Part shown: one piece after another, positions 3,999 to 53,359 of the stretch
Layout: the number at the start of each line of letters is the position of its first letter
How positions within the stretch are numbered: the first letter of the stretch is position 1
DNA from: Patescibacteria group bacterium
Lineage (GTDB): Bacteria > Patescibacteriota > Minisyncoccia > Phycocordibacterales > BOKC01
DNA length: 64,000 nt
Direction of reading: 5' to 3'
Assembly: GCA_038062955.1 (NCBI GenBank)
Contig: JBBTWE010000001.1
Coordinates: 182,304 to 246,303, forward strand
The notes under the pieces: model-generated
Told to the model about the DNA's origin: nothing
Databases searched by the model: none
The model's input: only the letters and a program-made list of their open reading frames with translations
Position numbers and translations under genes: made by a program

Positions 3999-4019
3999 CC
4001 CTGCCTGCCGGCAGGCAGG
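3999..4019. repeat. perfect GC palindrome cctgcctgccggcaggcagg (a family; other copies at 35143-35162, and degenerate at 7980-8000, 11003-11021, 44331-44351)
   Basis: identical 20-bp palindrome twice, each followed by ttgRatct; the copies at 35143 and 44331 sit 16-40 bp upstream of tRNA-Ala 5' ends. Confidence 0.7.
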
Positions 4020-20523: not shown

Positions 20524-20614
20524 ATAAATAGTCTGTAATGTAGAATAGAAAGGTTAAATGGTATTAAACCCTTTGATCGTCTACACGCTCGCTAACCGGA
20601 ATAAAGCAAAACCC

Positions 20615-20658
20615 CCGAACCGAAAGGAACGGGGGTTTTGCTTTTTATTTTGACTTTA
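20615..20658. terminator. bidirectional intrinsic terminator
   Basis: A-run, aaaacccccgaaccgaaaggaacgggggtttt, T-run. Confidence 0.75.
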
Positions 20659-20678
20659 TAACTTTTAACCTTATAACT

Positions 20679-30878: not shown

Positions 30879-31083
30879 ATATCAATAATAACATATTAGT
30901 GGATTCACGATGTAATATCTATGATTCAAGAAAAAGAAGCGTCACAAATTTTTCATGACTACGCCATGAAAAATCTTGCGACGTAATTTTTGTAGTGCAA
31001 AAATTAAAAGCGGGAACCCACGAATGTGGATTCCCGCTGGTTCTGACAGACGGATCTCTACTACTTCTCTCGAGGGCCTACGA

Positions 31084-31356
31084 TCAGGCCTGCTGGAGGA
31101 GTTCCAGCCGATCGAGTGGACGTTGGTTGAGCAACCCTTGGGCAACCTTCCTGATCGGTTGTCTCCTCTTCAGAGCATCCTTGATCCGACTCAACACTCT
31201 CGCGTCGAGGTGGTTCGCTCCACCGCTCTCGAGAATCATCTTCACGAGGCCCAACTCGGGATTGATTTCGCGAAGCTTCGGGGGCGGCTGTTCCTGCATC
31301 AGAGGGCGCATTGACCCTCTGCTTTCTCTGGGACGTGGACGATGACCGTGATTCAT
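31084..31356 (-). CDS. hypothetical protein (GC-rich island H, 90 aa)
   Basis: ribosome-binding site AGGAGAaacgcagg-ATG; strong intrinsic terminator gcgggaatccacattcgtgggttcccgc plus T-run on the minus strand (about 31005-31040). Confidence 0.55.
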   Translation of the reverse strand: MNHGHRPRPRESRGSMRPLMQEQPPPKLREINPELGLVKMILESGGANHLDARVLSRIKDALKRRQPIRKVAQGLLNQRPLDRLELLQQA

Positions 31357-31570
31357 CCTGCGTTTCTCCTACGAGGTTGAGAACTTTCTCTTGGCGTTGT
31401 TGCCTCGAGATCTGCGGTCAATCTTCTCATGGGGAGTTTTGTCTGTCAAAAAAGTTACGCACTTCTCCTTGACATAAAAATCCTAATATATTACACTGGT
31501 AGTCAGAAGAGTTGGCAAGGAGGCCAATTCTCGGTCATTTGTTTCCATGCGTTAGTTTGGAGAAACGGTC

Positions 31571-31795
31571 ATGAGAAAGCAACCGACAACAGAGGTGGAA
31601 ACCAGTCAGCGACCATTCGGGCGCGTACTGGGGGTTCGGATGGCGATGGATCGACTTCCTGAAGAGCCAGCTAGGCTGACTACCAGTTCCCCTGGTGGTC
31701 AGATCGCTCTGGTTCGCTCCACGAAGGTCAGGCGATGCGAAGAACAGGAGATCTCGCTCGCTCTTTGGCACGGAGGCATCACCTCTCGGTCGTGA
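31571..31795 (+). CDS. hypothetical protein (GC-rich island H, 74 aa)
   Basis: ribosome-binding site GGAGAaacggtc-ATG; TTGACA...TACACT promoter; terminator ccccagcatctacggatgctgggg plus T-run at about 31805-31845. Confidence 0.55.
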   Translation: MRKQPTTEVETSQRPFGRVLGVRMAMDRLPEEPARLTTSSPGGQIALVRSTKVRRCEEQEISLALWHGGITSRS

Positions 31796-31843
31796 CGTCT
31801 CGAACCCCAGCATCTACGGATGCTGGGGTTCTTATTTTATATA

Positions 31844-33196: not shown

Positions 33197-33311
33197 GATG
33201 CTTCGATTTTACTACGCCCTCCTTAACTTTGCACGAAACATCCATCATTGCAAAAAATTATTTTTTGATTGATACTAATTCCAGAACTGCACAAACCAAA
33301 TAGGAGGAAAC

Positions 33312-33986
33312 TTGAAAAAGGCACGGCTTCTCGTGTTTGAGTCAGGTGGGGTAGCCCCAGAGATCGGCGGGTCAGAATTCGAAAACCTGGTTCATGCTTC
33401 ACGGAAAGGAGAATTGAACGCCGAGATCGTTGGAGTGGTATCGAACCATGCAAACGGCGGTGTGCGTGCGCGCGCTGGGAGATTGGAAGTTCCGTTCTTC
33501 CATTTTGCAAGTCCTTGGAATGCCACAAGATACCAAGAAGTTGCCATGCGAAGCGACGCGAATTTCTTCGCTCTTTCTGGATGGGACAAGTATGTGGTAG
33601 GTCTTGACCTCGACACTTGCTTCAGTTCGAAGACAGTGTTCAATATTCATCATGGCCCTCTACCGGATTCCGGTGGACAAGGAATGTATGGACATCGTGT
33701 TCACAGAAGAGTCATAGCAACATTTCGGCGAGGTGAGATAAGAGACACCGCTGTCACCATGCAATTCGTCACTGCCAATGGATACAATTGCGGTCCGGTT
33801 TTCTTTCGACACAGGATTCCGATCCTGGAGCGTGAGATGCCAGAAGCTTTGGCAAAACGTGTTGGTGAATGGGGGCATCGTCTCCAACCACAAGTTACCG
33901 ACTGGGTAGTGAACGGTCTCGTCAGATGGGACGGAGTGAATTGGGATTCTCTTCGGATTCCCGAAACCATTCGTTCTGGGTGCTGA
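33312..33986 (+). CDS. formyltransferase-domain protein (PurN/GAR-transformylase-like, divergent)
   Basis: AEIVGVVSNHAN..., FNIHHGPLP (matches NIHPSLLP with Asn/His), FVTANGYNCGPV region; GC-rich; plus-strand terminator gcgactcttaaacgggtcgc plus T7. Confidence 0.5.
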   Translation: MKKARLLVFESGGVAPEIGGSEFENLVHASRKGELNAEIVGVVSNHANGGVRARAGRLEVPFFHFASPWNATRYQEVAMRSDANFFALSGWDKYVVGLDLDTCFSSKTVFNIHHGPLPDSGGQGMYGHRVHRRVIATFRRGEIRDTAVTMQFVTANGYNCGPVFFRHRIPILEREMPEALAKRVGEWGHRLQPQVTDWVVNGLVRWDGVNWDSLRIPETIRSGC

Positions 33987-34040
33987 TCGGTCACAATTCG
34001 TACGAGCGACTCTTAAACGGGTCGCTTTTTTTATGTATAA

Positions 34041-34090
34041 AAAAATCGCGGGAAAATCTTGAAGATTCTCTACCGCGATTTGAACGAACT
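34041..34090. terminator. back-to-back terminators between the formyltransferase (+) and GNAT (-) genes; the minus-strand one is homologous to 34538-34590
   Basis: shared aaaaaa(t/c)cgcggga-N14-ctctaccgcgatttg framework with a variable loop. Confidence 0.55.
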
Positions 34091-34091
34091 C

Positions 34092-34439
34092 CTATGCTGA
34101 TTGTTTGAGGTTCATTCGGAACTCTTTACCGTATTCTTTGAAACCCAAATCGATATAGAGTCTGTGCACACTAACACGAATGCGTCGGCTTGTGGCGATC
34201 AGTTTGTAGCACCCCAAAGACCTCGCTTTTTCGATGAGTTTGACGACGAGAGAACTCCCAATGCTCTTTCCTCGCAAGTGCGGATCAACATACACATCTT
34301 CCATAAGTCCGAATGGTTCTTCGTGCAGATCGTTGCCCAAAACATAGAGAAATGCTCGAGCAACCTCTTTACCACCCCTTCTGACGCTAAACCTGAAACC
34401 TTGGCATCTGCGTTCGAGTGTGACTGCTACTTCGTCCAT
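34092..34439 (-). CDS. GNAT-family N-acetyltransferase
   Basis: VYVDPHLRGKSIGSSLVVKLIEKARSLGCYKLIA (acetyl-CoA binding motif A); convergent with the formyltransferase gene. Confidence 0.65.
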   Translation of the reverse strand: MDEVAVTLERRCQGFRFSVRRGGKEVARAFLYVLGNDLHEEPFGLMEDVYVDPHLRGKSIGSSLVVKLIEKARSLGCYKLIATSRRIRVSVHRLYIDLGFKEYGKEFRMNLKQSA

Positions 34440-34591
34440 TTTTGTTCTCCTTGTTAGTCCGGAACGAGTATATGCGGAAGAAAGTTAAAAATCAAACCCG
34501 CCAAAGTTTTTTCGAAGAAAAAATTTAGGCGGGTAAATAAAAAAACCGCGGGAGTGTCGTATGACCCTCTACCGCGATTTGCCATCCAACT

Positions 34592-34819
34592 TTAGCGCCA
34601 AGAGCTGATTACGATTGCCAATTGTGTAACTGCAAGAGCAGCCTCAAAGTTGTCTCGGTAATCTGCAAACCCTTCCAACATATCTCTAAGGAAATCCTGC
34701 TGTCCTTCGTAAAGAGACATATTGCCAGGAATACCAACCAGAAGGGCTTTGACAAGCCCAGCGGTTCTTGGTGTCGCTATTCTTTCTAGGTAGTCTCTCG
34801 CGTTTACTATATCTGCCAT
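34592..34819 (-). CDS. hypothetical protein (GC-rich island J, 75 aa)
   Basis: ribosome-binding site AAGGAcgacagATG; TTGACA promoter abutting a tRNA-derived repeat; terminator homologous to the one at 34041-34090. Confidence 0.45.
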   Translation of the reverse strand: MADIVNARDYLERIATPRTAGLVKALLVGIPGNMSLYEGQQDFLRDMLEGFADYRDNFEAALAVTQLAIVISSWR

Positions 34820-34920
34820 CTGTCGTCCTTGCGATGGTATGTCATCGTCATTGTTGCGTTTTCTAAGAAGATCAATCTACTTTTACGTTATCGTGGATTC
34901 TTTAGCTTGTCAAAATTTGG

Positions 34921-34937
34921 TGGACCATAGCGGGATC
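34921..34937. repeat. 17-bp exact direct repeat of the tRNA-Ala(GGC) 3' end (tggaccatagcgggatc; second copy inside the tRNA at 35055-35071); att-like
   Basis: exact 17/17 match 117 bp from the tRNA 3' end; a further inverted partial T-arm copy ttcgatcccgctacgg lies at 35002-35017. Confidence 0.7.
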
Positions 34938-35054
34938 TCCACCTACCGTGGCGGGTGGTTTTCGATTTCGTAAACTCAATAACGAAAACCCTTTCGATCC
35001 CGCTACGGAGTGAAGCAGTTCACTCCTCCGGTTCCTAACTCACTGCGTTCGTTG

Positions 35055-35127
35055 TGGACCATAGCGGGATCGAACCGCTCACCTCGCACATGCCATGCGC
35101 GCGCTCTACCAAATGAGCTAATGGCCC
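35055..35127 (-). tRNA. tRNA-Ala (anticodon GGC)
   Basis: revcomp is GGGCCATTAGCTCATTTGGTAGAGCGCGCGCATGGCATGTGCGAGGTGAGCGGTTCGATCCCGCTATGGTCCA: cloverleaf with G3:U70, anticodon loop AUGGCAU, T-loop GGTTCGATCC; CCA is not encoded. Confidence 0.9.
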
Positions 35128-35142
35128 TTTAAATTTATGATT

Positions 35143-35162
35143 CCTGCCTGCCGGCAGGCAGG
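35143..35162. repeat. perfect GC palindrome cctgcctgccggcaggcagg, second copy
   Basis: identical to 3999-4019. Confidence 0.7.
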
Positions 35163-35179
35163 TTGAATCTAATTCCTAA

Positions 35180-35629
35180 CTAAAGACCAATTTTTTCCAT
35201 CCTTCTCTCTTTCTTTTTTTGATCCTCTTTTAGCTTTTTGATACCGTCACGAATGTTGAGTCCAGTATTTATTCCTCGCAACAATCTTACTAGGCGAGTA
35301 AATCGTAGAATACGGAGCACTCGGAAAAAACCGTCGGAGAATGGAAGTGATCCGAGAAAATCGAGTAAATTTTCCGGAATGTATTTTAGTCCTCGACCAG
35401 AAAAAAACATACTCACTAAAAAATCAGTTAAGAAGATATAAGCGATAGCTAAATCCAGATTATATAATAAATCAATGGTGAGCGGGCTTAAATCTTTCCC
35501 AAAATAATCATAAAGAAACATAAATCCCGAGGCAAAAGCCAGGATCGCTATTACGATGATATACCAAAGCCTGTTTTGGATGGAAGTGCATATATCCCCC
35601 ATCCTGTCTTTAAAACTTTTAGATTTCAT
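35180..35629 (-). CDS. ion-transport-domain fragment protein (voltage-sensor S3/S4-like helices)
   Basis: FRVLRILRFTRLVRLLRGINTGLN (Arg at every third position, S4-like) preceded by TM helices; 149 aa. Confidence 0.45.
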   Translation of the reverse strand: MKSKSFKDRMGDICTSIQNRLWYIIVIAILAFASGFMFLYDYFGKDLSPLTIDLLYNLDLAIAYIFLTDFLVSMFFSGRGLKYIPENLLDFLGSLPFSDGFFRVLRILRFTRLVRLLRGINTGLNIRDGIKKLKEDQKKKERRMEKIGL

Positions 35630-40917: not shown

Positions 40918-40956
40918 CTTTTGACTTTAGGGTCAAAAAGACAATCTTACAATTAT

Positions 40957-41012
40957 ATCATAAAGATAAAAACCCTTGTTTTTAGGCCTAGTTATGGAAT
41001 TAGGAGGATTTT
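40957..41012. repeat. about 55-bp direct repeat (second copy 41538-41596, about 85% identical), each followed by a TTGACA promoter
   Basis: acaattatatcataaagataaaaa(c/g)c(c/t)ttgtttttag... aligned by eye. Confidence 0.65.
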
Positions 41013-41026
41013 ATAGAAAATTCGCT

Positions 41027-41055
41027 TGACAATAAACTAGATGTGTGTATAATAT
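41027..41055 (+). promoter_or_regulatory. near-consensus sigma70-type promoter TTGACA-N16-TATAAT with TGn
   Basis: cgcTTGACAataaactagatgtgTGtgTATAATatac. Confidence 0.6.
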
Positions 41056-41064
41056 ACAAGGATA

Positions 41065-41478
41065 CGTTCGGCGCCAAATCCTTAAATGGCGAACACATGT
41101 CACTACGGGGTACAGCGATATGTGAGGCCAGCGTAGTATGTTTTCTCTCCCCATCCGACATACCACAAACGGTAACGGAAGAAGAAAGAGAAATAAGTTC
41201 CAGGCCGTGTCTCCATCCTGGAACGAAGCAAAAAAGAGACAACAAAAAAGACAAATTCTGCTATGATCCCGGGAAAGTTCCCGTGCGATCGAAGGTTCTA
41301 GACGGTGAGAATCTGTTCGCGATCCCGGGTTAAATCCTGGGCGAACATAAGGCCAAGATGCCACAACCGAGCACCCTGAGGATTGGTCTCCTCGCGTCCC
41401 ATAGGCCGCGTACTGGGTGATGATACTTTGACCACGGGCCGGAGCAACGATTCAGTCGTTTGCTTCGGCCCTTTTTTA
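41065..41478 (+). ncRNA. promoter/terminator-bounded GC-rich transcription unit (about 410 nt): structured ncRNA candidate, or a 79-aa Cys-containing small protein without a ribosome-binding site
   Basis: near-consensus TTGACA-N16(TGtG)-TATAAT at 41027-41055; multiple perfect hairpins (gttccagg...cctggaac, gttcgc...gcgaac); terminator gggccgg...cggccc plus T6 at 41436-41478; no RNase P / tmRNA / SRP signatures. Confidence 0.4.
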
Positions 41479-41665
41479 TTGCAAATTTTTAGGTATTTGT
41501 AGATGTGTGATGCGAATAAAAAGCAAAAAAGCGAATATAACAATTATATCATAAAGATAAAAAGCTTTGTTTTTAGACGTTTTTGTGGAATTATGCTAAT
41601 TTTACTTGACATTTTCCTGTATTATGATATTATCTAAATAGAACATCCAACCCACAGGAGGACTT

Positions 41666-41941
41666 ATGGAACCATACATGATGAAAAGGGCAGATGTAGA
41701 GGTCATGCTCATCTACATCAGAAGTGGCCTAATCCATCAGCATCAAGAAACAAACCGTAGTGACTTGATTGCAATTTTCGAAGCTGCACTTGCCGTTGCC
41801 GATCCGAAGCACTCGGGTAAGTACGTTTTTGTCAATTTCGGAGAGGGAGACCGTTACCATGACTTGTGGCATCAATACGGTGACCTGATCCGGGAGATCT
41901 GCTTCAGATACGAAACCATGCGGCAAGGTGGAAGACCCTAG
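41666..41941 (+). CDS. hypothetical protein (GC-rich island K2, 91 aa)
   Basis: TTGACA promoter (duplicated module) plus perfect ribosome-binding site AGGAGGacttATG. Confidence 0.5.
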   Translation: MEPYMMKRADVEVMLIYIRSGLIHQHQETNRSDLIAIFEAALAVADPKHSGKYVFVNFGEGDRYHDLWHQYGDLIREICFRYETMRQGGRP

Positions 41942-43083: not shown

Positions 43084-43518
43084 TCAATCTGGGAGAATGG
43101 ATGCCGGAATCGGGATGGCCACGCAACGGATTTGGCGGTCTGGAATGGTTACCAGTTGCCAGTTCTCGCGCAGGCCGATCTGTTCTGTGTTGACAATCTC
43201 AGGGAATGTATGCCGCACACTGTGCCAGAAACAAGAGTGGGCAAGGTCGAATCGATTTCTGATCACCCCAAGTGCTCTTGTGGCATCGTTTGTCTGCCTC
43301 TCATCCAGATCGAGAAGACTCCCCAACTTCGAGATCCGGTGCTTGAGCTCACCGCGTTCGTTTTCCGCGATTCTCATGACCGTGTAGAGACGCTTGAGAT
43401 CGTCCGGCAACGTGCCGATGACTTTCTCGCCCTCCTCCACCTTCCCCGTCGGACATTGAATATCCGCGAGAGGAACGCCCTCTGCCCGACTCAAGATTTC
43501 CTTCAGTAGCACTGTCAT
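43084..43518 (-). CDS. hypothetical protein (GC-rich island L gene 3, 144 aa)
   Basis: own TTGACA-N17-TAATAT promoter and ribosome-binding site AAGGAGGGcaaaATG; its terminator is homologous to the island C terminator. Confidence 0.5.
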   Translation of the reverse strand: MTVLLKEILSRAEGVPLADIQCPTGKVEEGEKVIGTLPDDLKRLYTVMRIAENERGELKHRISKLGSLLDLDERQTNDATRALGVIRNRFDLAHSCFWHSVRHTFPEIVNTEQIGLRENWQLVTIPDRQIRCVAIPIPASILPD

Positions 43519-43615
43519 TTTGCCCTCCTTGTGGGCTTGGAACTATTTCCGAGGAAGATATTAGTATACCTTTAGAATAATGTCAAATAGTGAGAATTTT
43601 AATAAAAAAACGGCC

Positions 43616-43912
43616 TCAACGCGTTTGCGCCAAGACCGTGAAAACTGCCACAAGAACAAGCAAGAAGAGCAAATCGAGAATAGCACGAGTTCTGTGCCGA
43701 ATCATCATCGGTTTTTGCGGAAGACGTTCTAGGACATCAGCGGGAACCTTCATGATGCAACCTAGTTCATCTCTGTGCAAGATCGGCACACATCCAAAGG
43801 GAACTGCGTCGGCTGGAAATGCGACCACCCTTGCTAGGCGATCTCGATATCTTACGATATCTCCACACTTGAATCTTCCTGCCCACACGGTGTTGTATGT
43901 TCTGTGAGCCAT
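43616..43912 (-). CDS. hypothetical protein with C-terminal TM (island L gene 2, 98 aa)
   Basis: GC-rich ORF, translationally adjacent to gene 1 (3-nt spacer). Confidence 0.45.
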   Translation of the reverse strand: MAHRTYNTVWAGRFKCGDIVRYRDRLARVVAFPADAVPFGCVPILHRDELGCIMKVPADVLERLPQKPMMIRHRTRAILDLLFLLVLVAVFTVLAQTR

Positions 43913-43914
43913 TC

Positions 43915-44112
43915 TTACCCCTCCTGTTGTTCGTGATCTGATGCTGGTCTATTCCTTCTCAACCTGCCTTCAGCAAGCCTTCGTTCGTGTTCTTCTGTTG
44001 TAACACAGAGGCATTCGCCATCCTCGCATTGTTCACGATGCGTATCTTGAATGCATCTGGTTAGACCATCAAGCTGTGCCTTTGAGAGAAGGCCGTTATT
44101 GTTCATGACCAC
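43915..44112 (-). CDS. hypothetical Cys-rich small protein (island L gene 1, 65 aa)
   Basis: C-x(9)-C-x(5)-C-x-C; perfect ribosome-binding site AAGGAGGTGgtcATG. Confidence 0.45.
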   Translation of the reverse strand: MVMNNNGLLSKAQLDGLTRCIQDTHREQCEDGECLCVTTEEHERRLAEGRLRRNRPASDHEQQEG

Positions 44113-44216: not shown

Positions 44217-44290
44217 TGGTGGACCTAGCGAGAATCGAACTCGCGCCTCTACAATGCGAATGTAGCATTTTACCACTGAACTATAGGCCC
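44217..44290 (-). tRNA. tRNA-Ala (anticodon CGC), CCA encoded
   Basis: revcomp is GGGCCTATAGTTCAGTGGTAAAATGCTACATTCGCATTGTAGAGGCGCGAGTTCGATTCTCGCTAGGTCCACCA; G3:U70; anticodon loop UUCGCAU. Confidence 0.85.
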
Positions 44291-44369
44291 AAACTAAATT
44301 CAAAAGGCAAAAATCAAAACTCAAAATTTACCCGCCTACCGGCAAGGCAGGAATTCAAAATTTTTATAT

Positions 44370-53224: not shown

Positions 53225-53286
53225 TCTGTATGTTATTTATATACCAAAATATAACGAGAATTAATGACTACTTGTAAGTAAGTTTG

Positions 53287-53359
53287 TGGACCCTACCGGG
53301 ATCGAACCGGTCGCCTCCACATTGCAAATGTGGCGCTCTACCAGATGAGCTAAGGGCCC
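53287..53359 (-). tRNA. tRNA-Ala (anticodon UGC)
   Basis: revcomp is GGGCCCTTAGCTCATCTGGTAGAGCGCCACATTTGCAATGTGGAGGCGACCGGTTCGATCCCGGTAGGGTCCA; G3:U70; anticodon loop UUUGCAA. Confidence 0.9.

Follow-up and report, generated by a model that had tools for sequence, protein, structure and literature searches.

A 134-bp unit bounded by repeats of a tRNA-Ala(GGC) 3′ end lies next to a GC-rich gene block in a Patescibacteria group bacterium

Does a repeated tRNA end beside GC-rich genes mark an integrated island? The question is raised by a locus in a 64,000-nucleotide stretch from a Patescibacteria group bacterium (GenBank contig JBBTWE010000001.1, positions 182,304 to 246,303; the whole stretch is referred to below as the window). 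Here a tRNA-Ala(GGC) gene is followed by a second copy of its own 3′ end and, further on, by genes for a 75-AA protein (o75), a GNAT acetyltransferase, a PurN-like formyltransferase and G6PD. A sequence-only reading of this DNA had taken the repeat for the footprint of site-specific integration at the tRNA gene and the first three of these genes for a decayed or minimal island. Our comparative analysis makes another answer fairly probable, namely that two unrelated things lie side by side: an old, eroding block of purine genes and small gene cassettes, and a maintained 134-bp remnant flanked by attachment (att) sites.

The tRNA-Ala(GGC) gene is genuine. ARAGORN and the Rfam tRNA model (53.5 bits) place it at 35054/35055–35127 on the minus strand; it is complete (35055–35127) and canonical, with its CCA end not encoded, and is 100% identical in two of the related species described below, L008 and L026. 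Its 3′ end is repeated exactly. The 18-nt direct repeat GTGGACCATAGCGGGATC (plus strand) occurs at 35054–35071 and again at 34920–34937, the two copies being offset by 134 bp, for a chance expectation of 0.01 matches per window. The tRNA gene and the exactness of its repeated end had been recognized correctly from the sequence, with a repeat length (17 bp) that was one base too short. The proximal copy, on the minus strand, comprises the T-loop GATC, the 3′ strands of the T-stem and the acceptor stem, the discriminator and one further base, and these boundaries match the geometry of site-specific integration into tRNA genes. The distal copy, also on the minus strand, abuts the −35 box of o75 (TTGACA, 34913–34908). 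No third copy was found in the window, L008 or L026, with three mismatches allowed.

Between the two copies lies a 116-bp insert (34938–35053, minus strand) that contains no open reading frame (ORF). The sequence TTCGATCCCGCTACGG, which copies the T-arm and the acceptor 3′ segment of the tRNA in inverted orientation, had also been noticed here before; it exists, at 34993–35008 on the minus strand and not at 35002–35017, a displacement of 9 nt. Inside the 134-bp unit, this inverted copy is interrupted by a hairpin (H1); two more hairpins (H2 and H3) and finally the direct copy follow.

Exact-protein look-ups of homologues yielded three further species that share the locus. In the window the order is tRNA, 134-bp unit, o75, GNAT, purN and G6PD. 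The L008 contig (JGI metagenome 3300020195) carries ROK, PGI, G6PD, purM, purN, a 132-AA gene, o75, tRNA-Ala(GGC), Ion_trans and an ATPase. The contigs L026–L033, from aquifer metagenomes, carry the tRNA, the 134-bp unit, a 208-AA gene, DUF5701, o75 and G6PD, without purN and GNAT. The fourth relative, represented by the short contigs L035 and L039, has an o75-like gene, GNAT (71% identical), a purL that is cut after about 300 codons, purN (65%) and G6PD. With G6PD as the anchor no relatives were found in GTDB genomes, and its alignment in JGI metagenomes gave only the L008 contig as close, the others being at most 39% identical and not syntenic. The window genome was recovered from groundwater at Hainich, several samples from which yielded identical contigs, and all Hainich contigs of the window strain are identical over 33200–35200.

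Breaks in DNA homology between the window and L008 number exactly three: the window lacks purM, it has the GNAT cassette where L008 has that of the 132-AA gene, and it alone of the two carries the 134-bp unit. L008 serves as an empty site for the unit, with an identical tRNA and no duplication; the 116-bp insert is present in L026 and absent from L008. The flank AAAAATAA follows the tRNA in L008 and the distal repeat copy in L026, and for this reason we read the distal copy as the original tRNA 3′ end, displaced. Identity between the window and L026 stops exactly at the distal repeat. Together, the geometry and the empty site give an integration-type origin of the unit good support. An integrase-type recombination in the T-loop would have inserted 134 bp, regenerated the tRNA and pushed its original 3′ end 134 bp downstream. 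The T-loop of tRNA-Ala genes is a known integrase target, for example of mycobacteriophage Ms6 (PMC1762012).

Whether this event also brought in the neighboring genes can be judged by comparison with known islands. In the sense of Islander, islands and prophages integrated at tRNA genes are made by tyrosine integrases, and the cargo of an integrated island lies between the regenerated tRNA and the displaced fragment (PMC4383910). The locus resembles such islands in its exact repeat from T-loop to 3′ end, its regenerated intact tRNA, the displaced 3′ fragment present as a direct repeat, the empty site in a relative and a composition that deviates from the host. It differs in that only 116 bp lie between the copies, with purN, GNAT and o75 all beyond the distal copy, in that no integrase lies inside next to an att end, and in that the insert is 98% conserved between species. 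The earlier remark that no integrase is left was borne out, as none was found within about 10 kb (the neighbors being Ion_trans, P-type ATPase and G6PD) or among the 10 mid-sized window ORFs checked. The footprint of integration thus holds for the repeat and its 134-bp unit but not for the three genes, which stand outside the repeat pair.

That these genes are nevertheless cargo of a decayed island at tRNA-Ala(GGC), with the 18-nt repeat as its att footprint, is very improbable. The att-like repeat is real, the genes are GC-rich and the locus varies among relatives, all of which speak for such an island; yet there is no third copy that would enclose the genes, purN and o75 are present in L008, which lacks the repeat, the repeat is present in L026, which lacks purN and GNAT, and the genes have diverged about as far as the core genes. 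From the window to L008, synonymous divergence (dS) reaches 1.06 in purN and 1.05 in o75 vs. 1.19–1.49 in core genes, close enough to the core level that purN and o75 must predate the split of these species. At the protein level, purN is 70.5% and o75 51–69% identical to the relatives, with 75–90% for core proteins. A locus without the genes had been proposed as a check. L008 does provide an empty site for the unit, but L008 and L035/L039 carry the genes themselves.

The foreign composition that had been pointed out is real. The stretch between the tRNA and G6PD is atypical and its content differs between relatives; GC contents of the formyltransferase, GNAT and o75 genes are 0.51, 0.47 and 0.46, and GC at third codon positions (GC3) is 0.47, 0.48 and 0.40, vs. 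0.34–0.36 (GC) and 0.26–0.36 (GC3) in the flanking G6PD, PGI and Ion_trans. But the same high GC3 is found in L008, and high GC is for that reason no sign of a recent arrival. For annotation it follows that a repeated tRNA end beside GC-rich genes is insufficient for an island call; the genes must sit between the copies.

A quite different origin of the repeat, from a tandem tRNA gene or pseudogene that left it as a relic or from slippage that duplicated the tRNA 3′ end, is hardly credible. The three tRNA-Ala genes of the window do lie within 18 kb, and ARAGORN reports a “tRNA-???” at the unit, only when its threshold is lowered to 70%. Still, the 116 bp have no tRNA homology except for the inverted copy, the Rfam tRNA model matches only the true tRNA, and slippage would repeat the flank and not bring in new sequence. 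No credible second tRNA or tmRNA was found in the unit at normal or relaxed ARAGORN thresholds, and no partial copies of tRNA ends lie near the other two tRNA-Ala genes of the window.

These isoacceptor genes (GGC, 35054–35127; CGC, 44217–44290; UGC, 53286–53359) are all on one strand, and tRNA-Ala(CGC) is the only one of the three that encodes its own CCA end. We also noted a perfect 20-bp palindrome, CCTGCCTGCCGGCAGGCAGG, with two exact copies in the window (4000–4019 and 35143–35162; 0 expected). One copy is situated 16 bp upstream of tRNA-Ala(GGC), where L008 and L026 have none; tRNA-Ala(CGC) is preceded by a related but imperfect sequence near 44333–44352.

Comparison of the 134-bp unit between the window and L026 showed a match at 132 of 135 aligned positions (98%), loops included, next to an Ion_trans gene that is 75.7% identical, in species whose silent sites are saturated. 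At 20% divergence the probability of three or fewer changes in the unit is about 7e-10. The unit is too conserved to be a neutral scar, unless it recently entered both lineages.

The RNA of the tRNA strand is predicted to fold into P1 (5 bp), H1 (8 bp; 35007–35026, minus strand, GGAGUGAA-CUGC-UUCACUCC) and a long stem S (11 bp), inside which lie H2 (34957–34990) and H3 (34939–34954), together spanning 34939–34990 on the minus strand. The inverted tRNA copy forms the 5′ strand of S and is predicted to pair with the distal repeat. When the unit is folded together with the tRNA, an alternative is predicted in which the inverted copy pairs with the tRNA’s own 3′ end. The fold energy is −52.3 kcal/mol for the window (z −4.05) and −54.2 kcal/mol for L026 (z −4.9). 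All three differences between the two copies spare the structure, two being unpaired and one changing a G-U to a G-C pair in S. Thanks to three G-U pairs, the tRNA strand is the better folder of the two strands (−52.3 vs. −49.1 kcal/mol). Rfam contains no match for the 134-nt unit; only the tRNA itself was found at E ≤ 1.

Elements that retain attL and attR and have lost their recombination genes are known as cis-mobilizable elements (CIMEs; PMC5704250), and the unit, with two copies and no ORF, has this constitution. It is likewise att-flanked and gene-less at the 3′ end of a target gene, and in L026 the attR-like copy is directly followed by new genes, an arrangement resembling accretion. 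The CIMEs described so far are far larger than this unit. A further difference is that no third att copy bounds the adjacent genes and that no cognate integrase or element was found.

We favor the reading that the unit is a minimal, gene-less, CIME-like att-flanked remnant which has been retained and now functions, most simply as a tRNA trailer RNA. Its likeliest form would be a structured 3′ trailer transcribed together with the tRNA, with the long stem formed between the inverted copy and the displaced end of the tRNA; the conservation suggests that selection may maintain it. There is a precedent in the 3′ external transcribed spacer of E. coli glyW-cysT-leuZ, which acts as a small RNA (sRNA) sponge (PMC8166272, PMC6191717). 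Like functional trailers of this kind, the unit lies directly 3′ of the tRNA with no intervening terminator and is structured and conserved. It is unlike them in deriving from a duplicated tRNA end and in containing an inverted copy of that end.

Several observations weigh against this reading. The missing integrase, already mentioned, is one of them; another is that viral contigs, phage and plasmid records and GTDB genomes yielded no element with the 116 bp. Just two independent copies of the unit are known. Their near-identity, loops included, could equally fit a recent independent acquisition, and the window, L008 and L026 are roughly equidistant, so that one gain, two gains, or a gain with precise loss in L008 are equally compatible with the distribution.

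The chief rival builds on these points. It takes the unit for a small mobile or mobilizable element, or the footprint of one, that entered the two lineages recently and independently by way of a trans-acting integrase targeting the T-loop of tRNA-Ala(GGC). The identity of 98% in spite of saturated silent sites, its abrupt end at the distal repeat and the presence of the unit in two species and absence from a third at about equal distance would all be expected of such an element. But the unit is single-copy, with one per genome fragment, and our searches for it elsewhere found no further copy. A covariance model of the unit, run over 281 kb of collected loci, recovered the two copies already known and no others. 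Viral contigs, scanned for the exact patterns of the repeat, junction, stem, H1, H2 and H3, gave no match, nor did BLAST of the unit against phage and plasmid records. The stem pattern had one match in GTDB genomes, a chance one in the polyphosphate kinase gene of an Acidimicrobiaceae metagenome-assembled genome. No integrase was seen, and 134 bp is very small for recombinase-mediated circularization. We regard recent mobility, with the near-identity reflecting the youth of the unit and not a function, as rather unlikely.

We propose, tentatively and with more doubt than confidence, that the unit is an undescribed tRNA-linked element in which inverted and direct copies of the tRNA-Ala 3′ end fold into a 16-bp coaxial helix that resembles the acceptor and T-stem and carries three extra hairpins. 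It might be a stable trailer RNA that acts as a decoy, regulates tRNA-Ala or serves as a processing signal, or else a gene-less mini-element that targets the T-loop and at which moving cassettes, each with promoter and terminator, dock. If functional or mobile, the unit would be either a tRNA-trailer RNA of a new kind or an att-flanked element smaller than any described, in a group, the Patescibacteria, in which very little is known of integrative elements and small RNAs.

What, then, are the genes beyond the distal repeat? Their description as three GC-rich genes coding for a formyltransferase, a GNAT protein and a 75-AA product proved accurate (GC 0.46–0.51), and the strong ribosome-binding sites and paired terminators attributed to them can be read in the sequence. 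The PurN-like formyltransferase is encoded at 33312–33986 on the plus strand by an intact but degenerate ORF with a TTG start (PF00551 Formyl_trans_N, 1.2e-9), followed on the same strand by an intrinsic terminator at 34004–34027. The protein’s family numbers at least 255 members, of which those with a named source all come from Patescibacteria and those listed are 52–71% identical. PurN is the top match both in NCBIfam and in the PDB (4ds3, 3av3, 1c2t). The score against TIGR00639 is 50.9 bits for the window protein and 89–94.5 bits for its relatives, all below the equivalog cut-off of 150.1 bits. The family thus shares with PurN the Formyl_trans_N fold, the N-x-H at 111–113, the best match and, in relatives, linkage to purM and purL. 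It differs from PurN in its scores below the cut-off, and the window copy does so further in having Asn for Asp and no purM or purL as neighbors.

In E. coli numbering, the catalytic residues of PurN are Asn106, His108 and Asp144. When aligned to PDB 4ds3 and 3av3, the family is seen to retain the N-I-H (the N-x-H at 111–113) and D-x-GP motifs, in which the catalytic Asn, His and Asp are located. In the window protein, N111 and H113 are kept, but the Asp of D-x-GP is replaced by Asn (D159N), a position at which 119 of 119 other family members have Asp. The catalytic triad, which the sequence-only reading had suggested checking, is thus present for Asn and His and broken at Asp. In all, the protein is altered at 10 of the 74 columns that are at least 95% conserved, D159N, P114H, H151Q, G22E and E188G being among the near-invariant positions concerned. 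The other 119 members have a median of 1 such change and a maximum of 5, the L008 orthologue having 1 and the L039 orthologue 2.

As the catalytic Asp is lost, the window PurN-like protein is probably inactive or repurposed. D159N may alter rather than abolish activity, and the overall ratio of nonsynonymous to synonymous divergence for purN (dN/dS 0.18) indicates a gene that is not evolving freely; a changed function is possible because the ORF is intact at this ratio. Both points weigh against erosion as the full account of the gene, as does the unexplained high GC3 common to all lineages.

In relatives the family is tied to purine synthesis. Its gene lies next to purM in L008 and between purM and purL in L014, where purL passes the FGAM-synthase TIGR01735 cut-off, and it accompanies the truncated purL in L039/L035. 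In the 64-kb window no purM, purL or other pur gene was found. Comparison of the DNA with L008 places the junction at which purM and its terminator (L008 5068–6342) are missing at 33239–33246 of the window. In L039 the interval between G6PD and purN (1–513), expected to hold purM, was observed to contain about 400 bp of non-coding DNA with direct and inverted copies of a CACCCCRTTAGAT motif.

The synteny, the co-divergence with core genes and the residue changes fit the following scheme. The GC-rich stretch from tRNA-Ala(GGC) to G6PD would be an old resident block of this Patescibacteria clade, which once held o75, the mini-GNAT gene and a purL-purN-purM cluster and which is being eroded and reshuffled lineage by lineage. 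In the window genome purL and purM would be gone and the PurN-like ORF would represent the last stage of erosion. Over the four related genomes one can follow the truncation and later loss of purL, the disappearance of purM and, in purN, the loss of the catalytic Asp. For a groundwater clade of Patescibacteria, the locus shows how de novo purine synthesis is given up in stages, in keeping with the reduced, host-dependent lifestyle of the group. The gene part of the locus is ordinary, consisting of reductive evolution and cassette turnover.

It is quite possible, although we hold it to be short of probable, that the whole GC-rich block (o75, GNAT, purL, purN, purM) goes back to an ancient island. 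It would have come from a GC-richer Patescibacterium before the split of the species and since lost its own att sites and integrase to erosion, with the 134-bp unit as a later, independent event at the same hotspot. The GC3 of 0.40–0.48 vs. 0.26–0.36 in the core, found in the window and in L008, points this way, and so do the position of the block on the 3′ side of the tRNA, the identity of 56–75% to the pur proteins of L014, a Patescibacterium with 49% GC, and a second GC-rich cassette group directly 3′ of tRNA-Ala(CGC). On the other side, no repeat or integrase is left, no donor is known, and other GC-rich cassettes of the window (in the PGI-G6PD spacer and the region at 41.0–41.9 kb) have no adjoining tRNA. 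At dS above 1, moreover, GC3 should have drifted far toward that of the host.

The GNAT gene (34092–34439, minus strand) encodes a mini-GNAT acetyltransferase of 115 AA that passes the Pfam gathering score (PF00583, 3e-11; 44 bits vs. 20.7). It belongs to a subfamily of about 110 AA with more than 600 homologues of 109–118 AA, 55–71% identical, which is very widespread in Patescibacteria, Woesearchaeota and Pseudomonadota, among other bacteria and archaea. No characterized member is close to the window protein, whose C-terminal half resembles GNA1-type enzymes (PDB 3fb3). NCBIfam scores are far under the cut-offs of all AAC or toxin-type GNAT models.

The gene has its own promoter-like site and a terminator hairpin at 34047–34077 on the minus strand, back to back with the purN terminator. 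The cassette DNA (34042–34534) has no counterpart in L008 or L026, and the 71%-identical copy in L035 comes after o75. The GNAT gene is flanked by two hairpins of one terminator family, spaced 500 bp apart, and this family has no other instance in the 64 kb. Relatives of these hairpins occur in L008 downstream of purM and o75, and in L026 and L035 downstream of the cassettes.

Formyltransferase and acetyltransferase had been proposed to form a pair for N-acyl tailoring of a small molecule or for resistance. The two genes are adjacent and convergent, and the GNAT protein has a weak similarity to AAC(6′) models (34 bits vs. cut-offs of 140–325). However, each gene has its own promoter and terminator, the terminators standing back to back; L008 has the other, 132-AA gene at the GNAT position and L026 has neither gene; the formyltransferase family is tied to purM and purL; and the formyltransferase has lost its catalytic Asp. 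Nothing ties the two genes functionally, and a purine-synthesis context on one side with an independent cassette, absent from two relatives, on the other makes the pair extremely improbable.

The o75 gene (34592–34819, minus strand) had been called an ORFan, which does not hold, as orthologues are found in three related species. It is restricted to the clade, being present in all four related species including that of the window, and has only 4 matches among 1.84 billion representatives. Neither Pfam nor NCBIfam has a family matching its product. The predicted structure is a confident model of four helices (pLDDT, the predicted local confidence score, 87.5), and comparison of this model with the PDB gave no significant fold match. 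The gene has its own promoter and a terminator hairpin (34547–34576, minus strand; CGCGG..CCGCG followed by a T-run) of the same family as the GNAT terminator; GNAT and o75 are separate transcription units.

We considered o75 and GNAT as a GNAT-type toxin-antitoxin pair and rejected this, with a terminator and a separate promoter between the genes and o75 occurring without GNAT in L008 and L026. An integron cassette array was rejected as well. Small single-gene units in variable number and order among relatives, at a conserved site and with similar flanking hairpins, are reminiscent of one, but here every unit comes with a promoter, ribosome-binding site and terminator of its own, one gene runs in the opposite direction, and no integron integrase, attI or attC was found.

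Further GC-rich cassettes were observed elsewhere in the window, and their small ORFs have no Pfam families. At 43084–44112 (minus strand), directly 3′ of tRNA-Ala(CGC), lies the second group of small genes (144, 98 and 65 AA; GC3 0.38–0.63), without a tRNA-end repeat. Two of these are homologous to parts of the 132-AA gene found in L008 at the position of GNAT, the 98-AA ORF to its N-terminal half and the 65-AA ORF to its C-terminal half. The PGI-G6PD spacer (30950–31840; GC 55–58%) contains two small ORFs, one of 90 AA on the minus strand and one of 74 AA on the plus strand, and both have a terminator with a 13-bp stem. It has no Pfam or Rfam matches and patchy DNA similarity to L008 and L026, in which the 90-AA protein is 53% and 39% identical, respectively.

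The Rfam model ohsC_RNA matches at 20603–20669 (minus strand) with 55 bits, the gathering score being 50. The model describes the antitoxin sRNA of a type I toxin-antitoxin system of enterobacteria, which one would not expect in a Patescibacterium, and the match may be a false positive.

A cassette with a GC-rich 91-AA gene at 41666–41941 (plus strand) is 79% identical to one in L026 (4477–4749), which sits elsewhere, inverted and flanked by the P-type ATPase and PMSR. It follows that cassettes travel within these genomes as whole promoter-gene-terminator units. Close to it, at 41026–41478 (plus strand), a perfect consensus promoter (TTGACA-16-TATAAT, 12/12) precedes a GC-rich stretch of about 420 nt without an ORF, which has no Rfam match, a fold z of −3.4 and a strong terminal hairpin followed by a T-run. 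Flanked by 79-nt direct repeats that are 81% identical (40935–41013 and 41526–41604), this stretch may represent a new non-coding RNA gene or a non-coding cassette.

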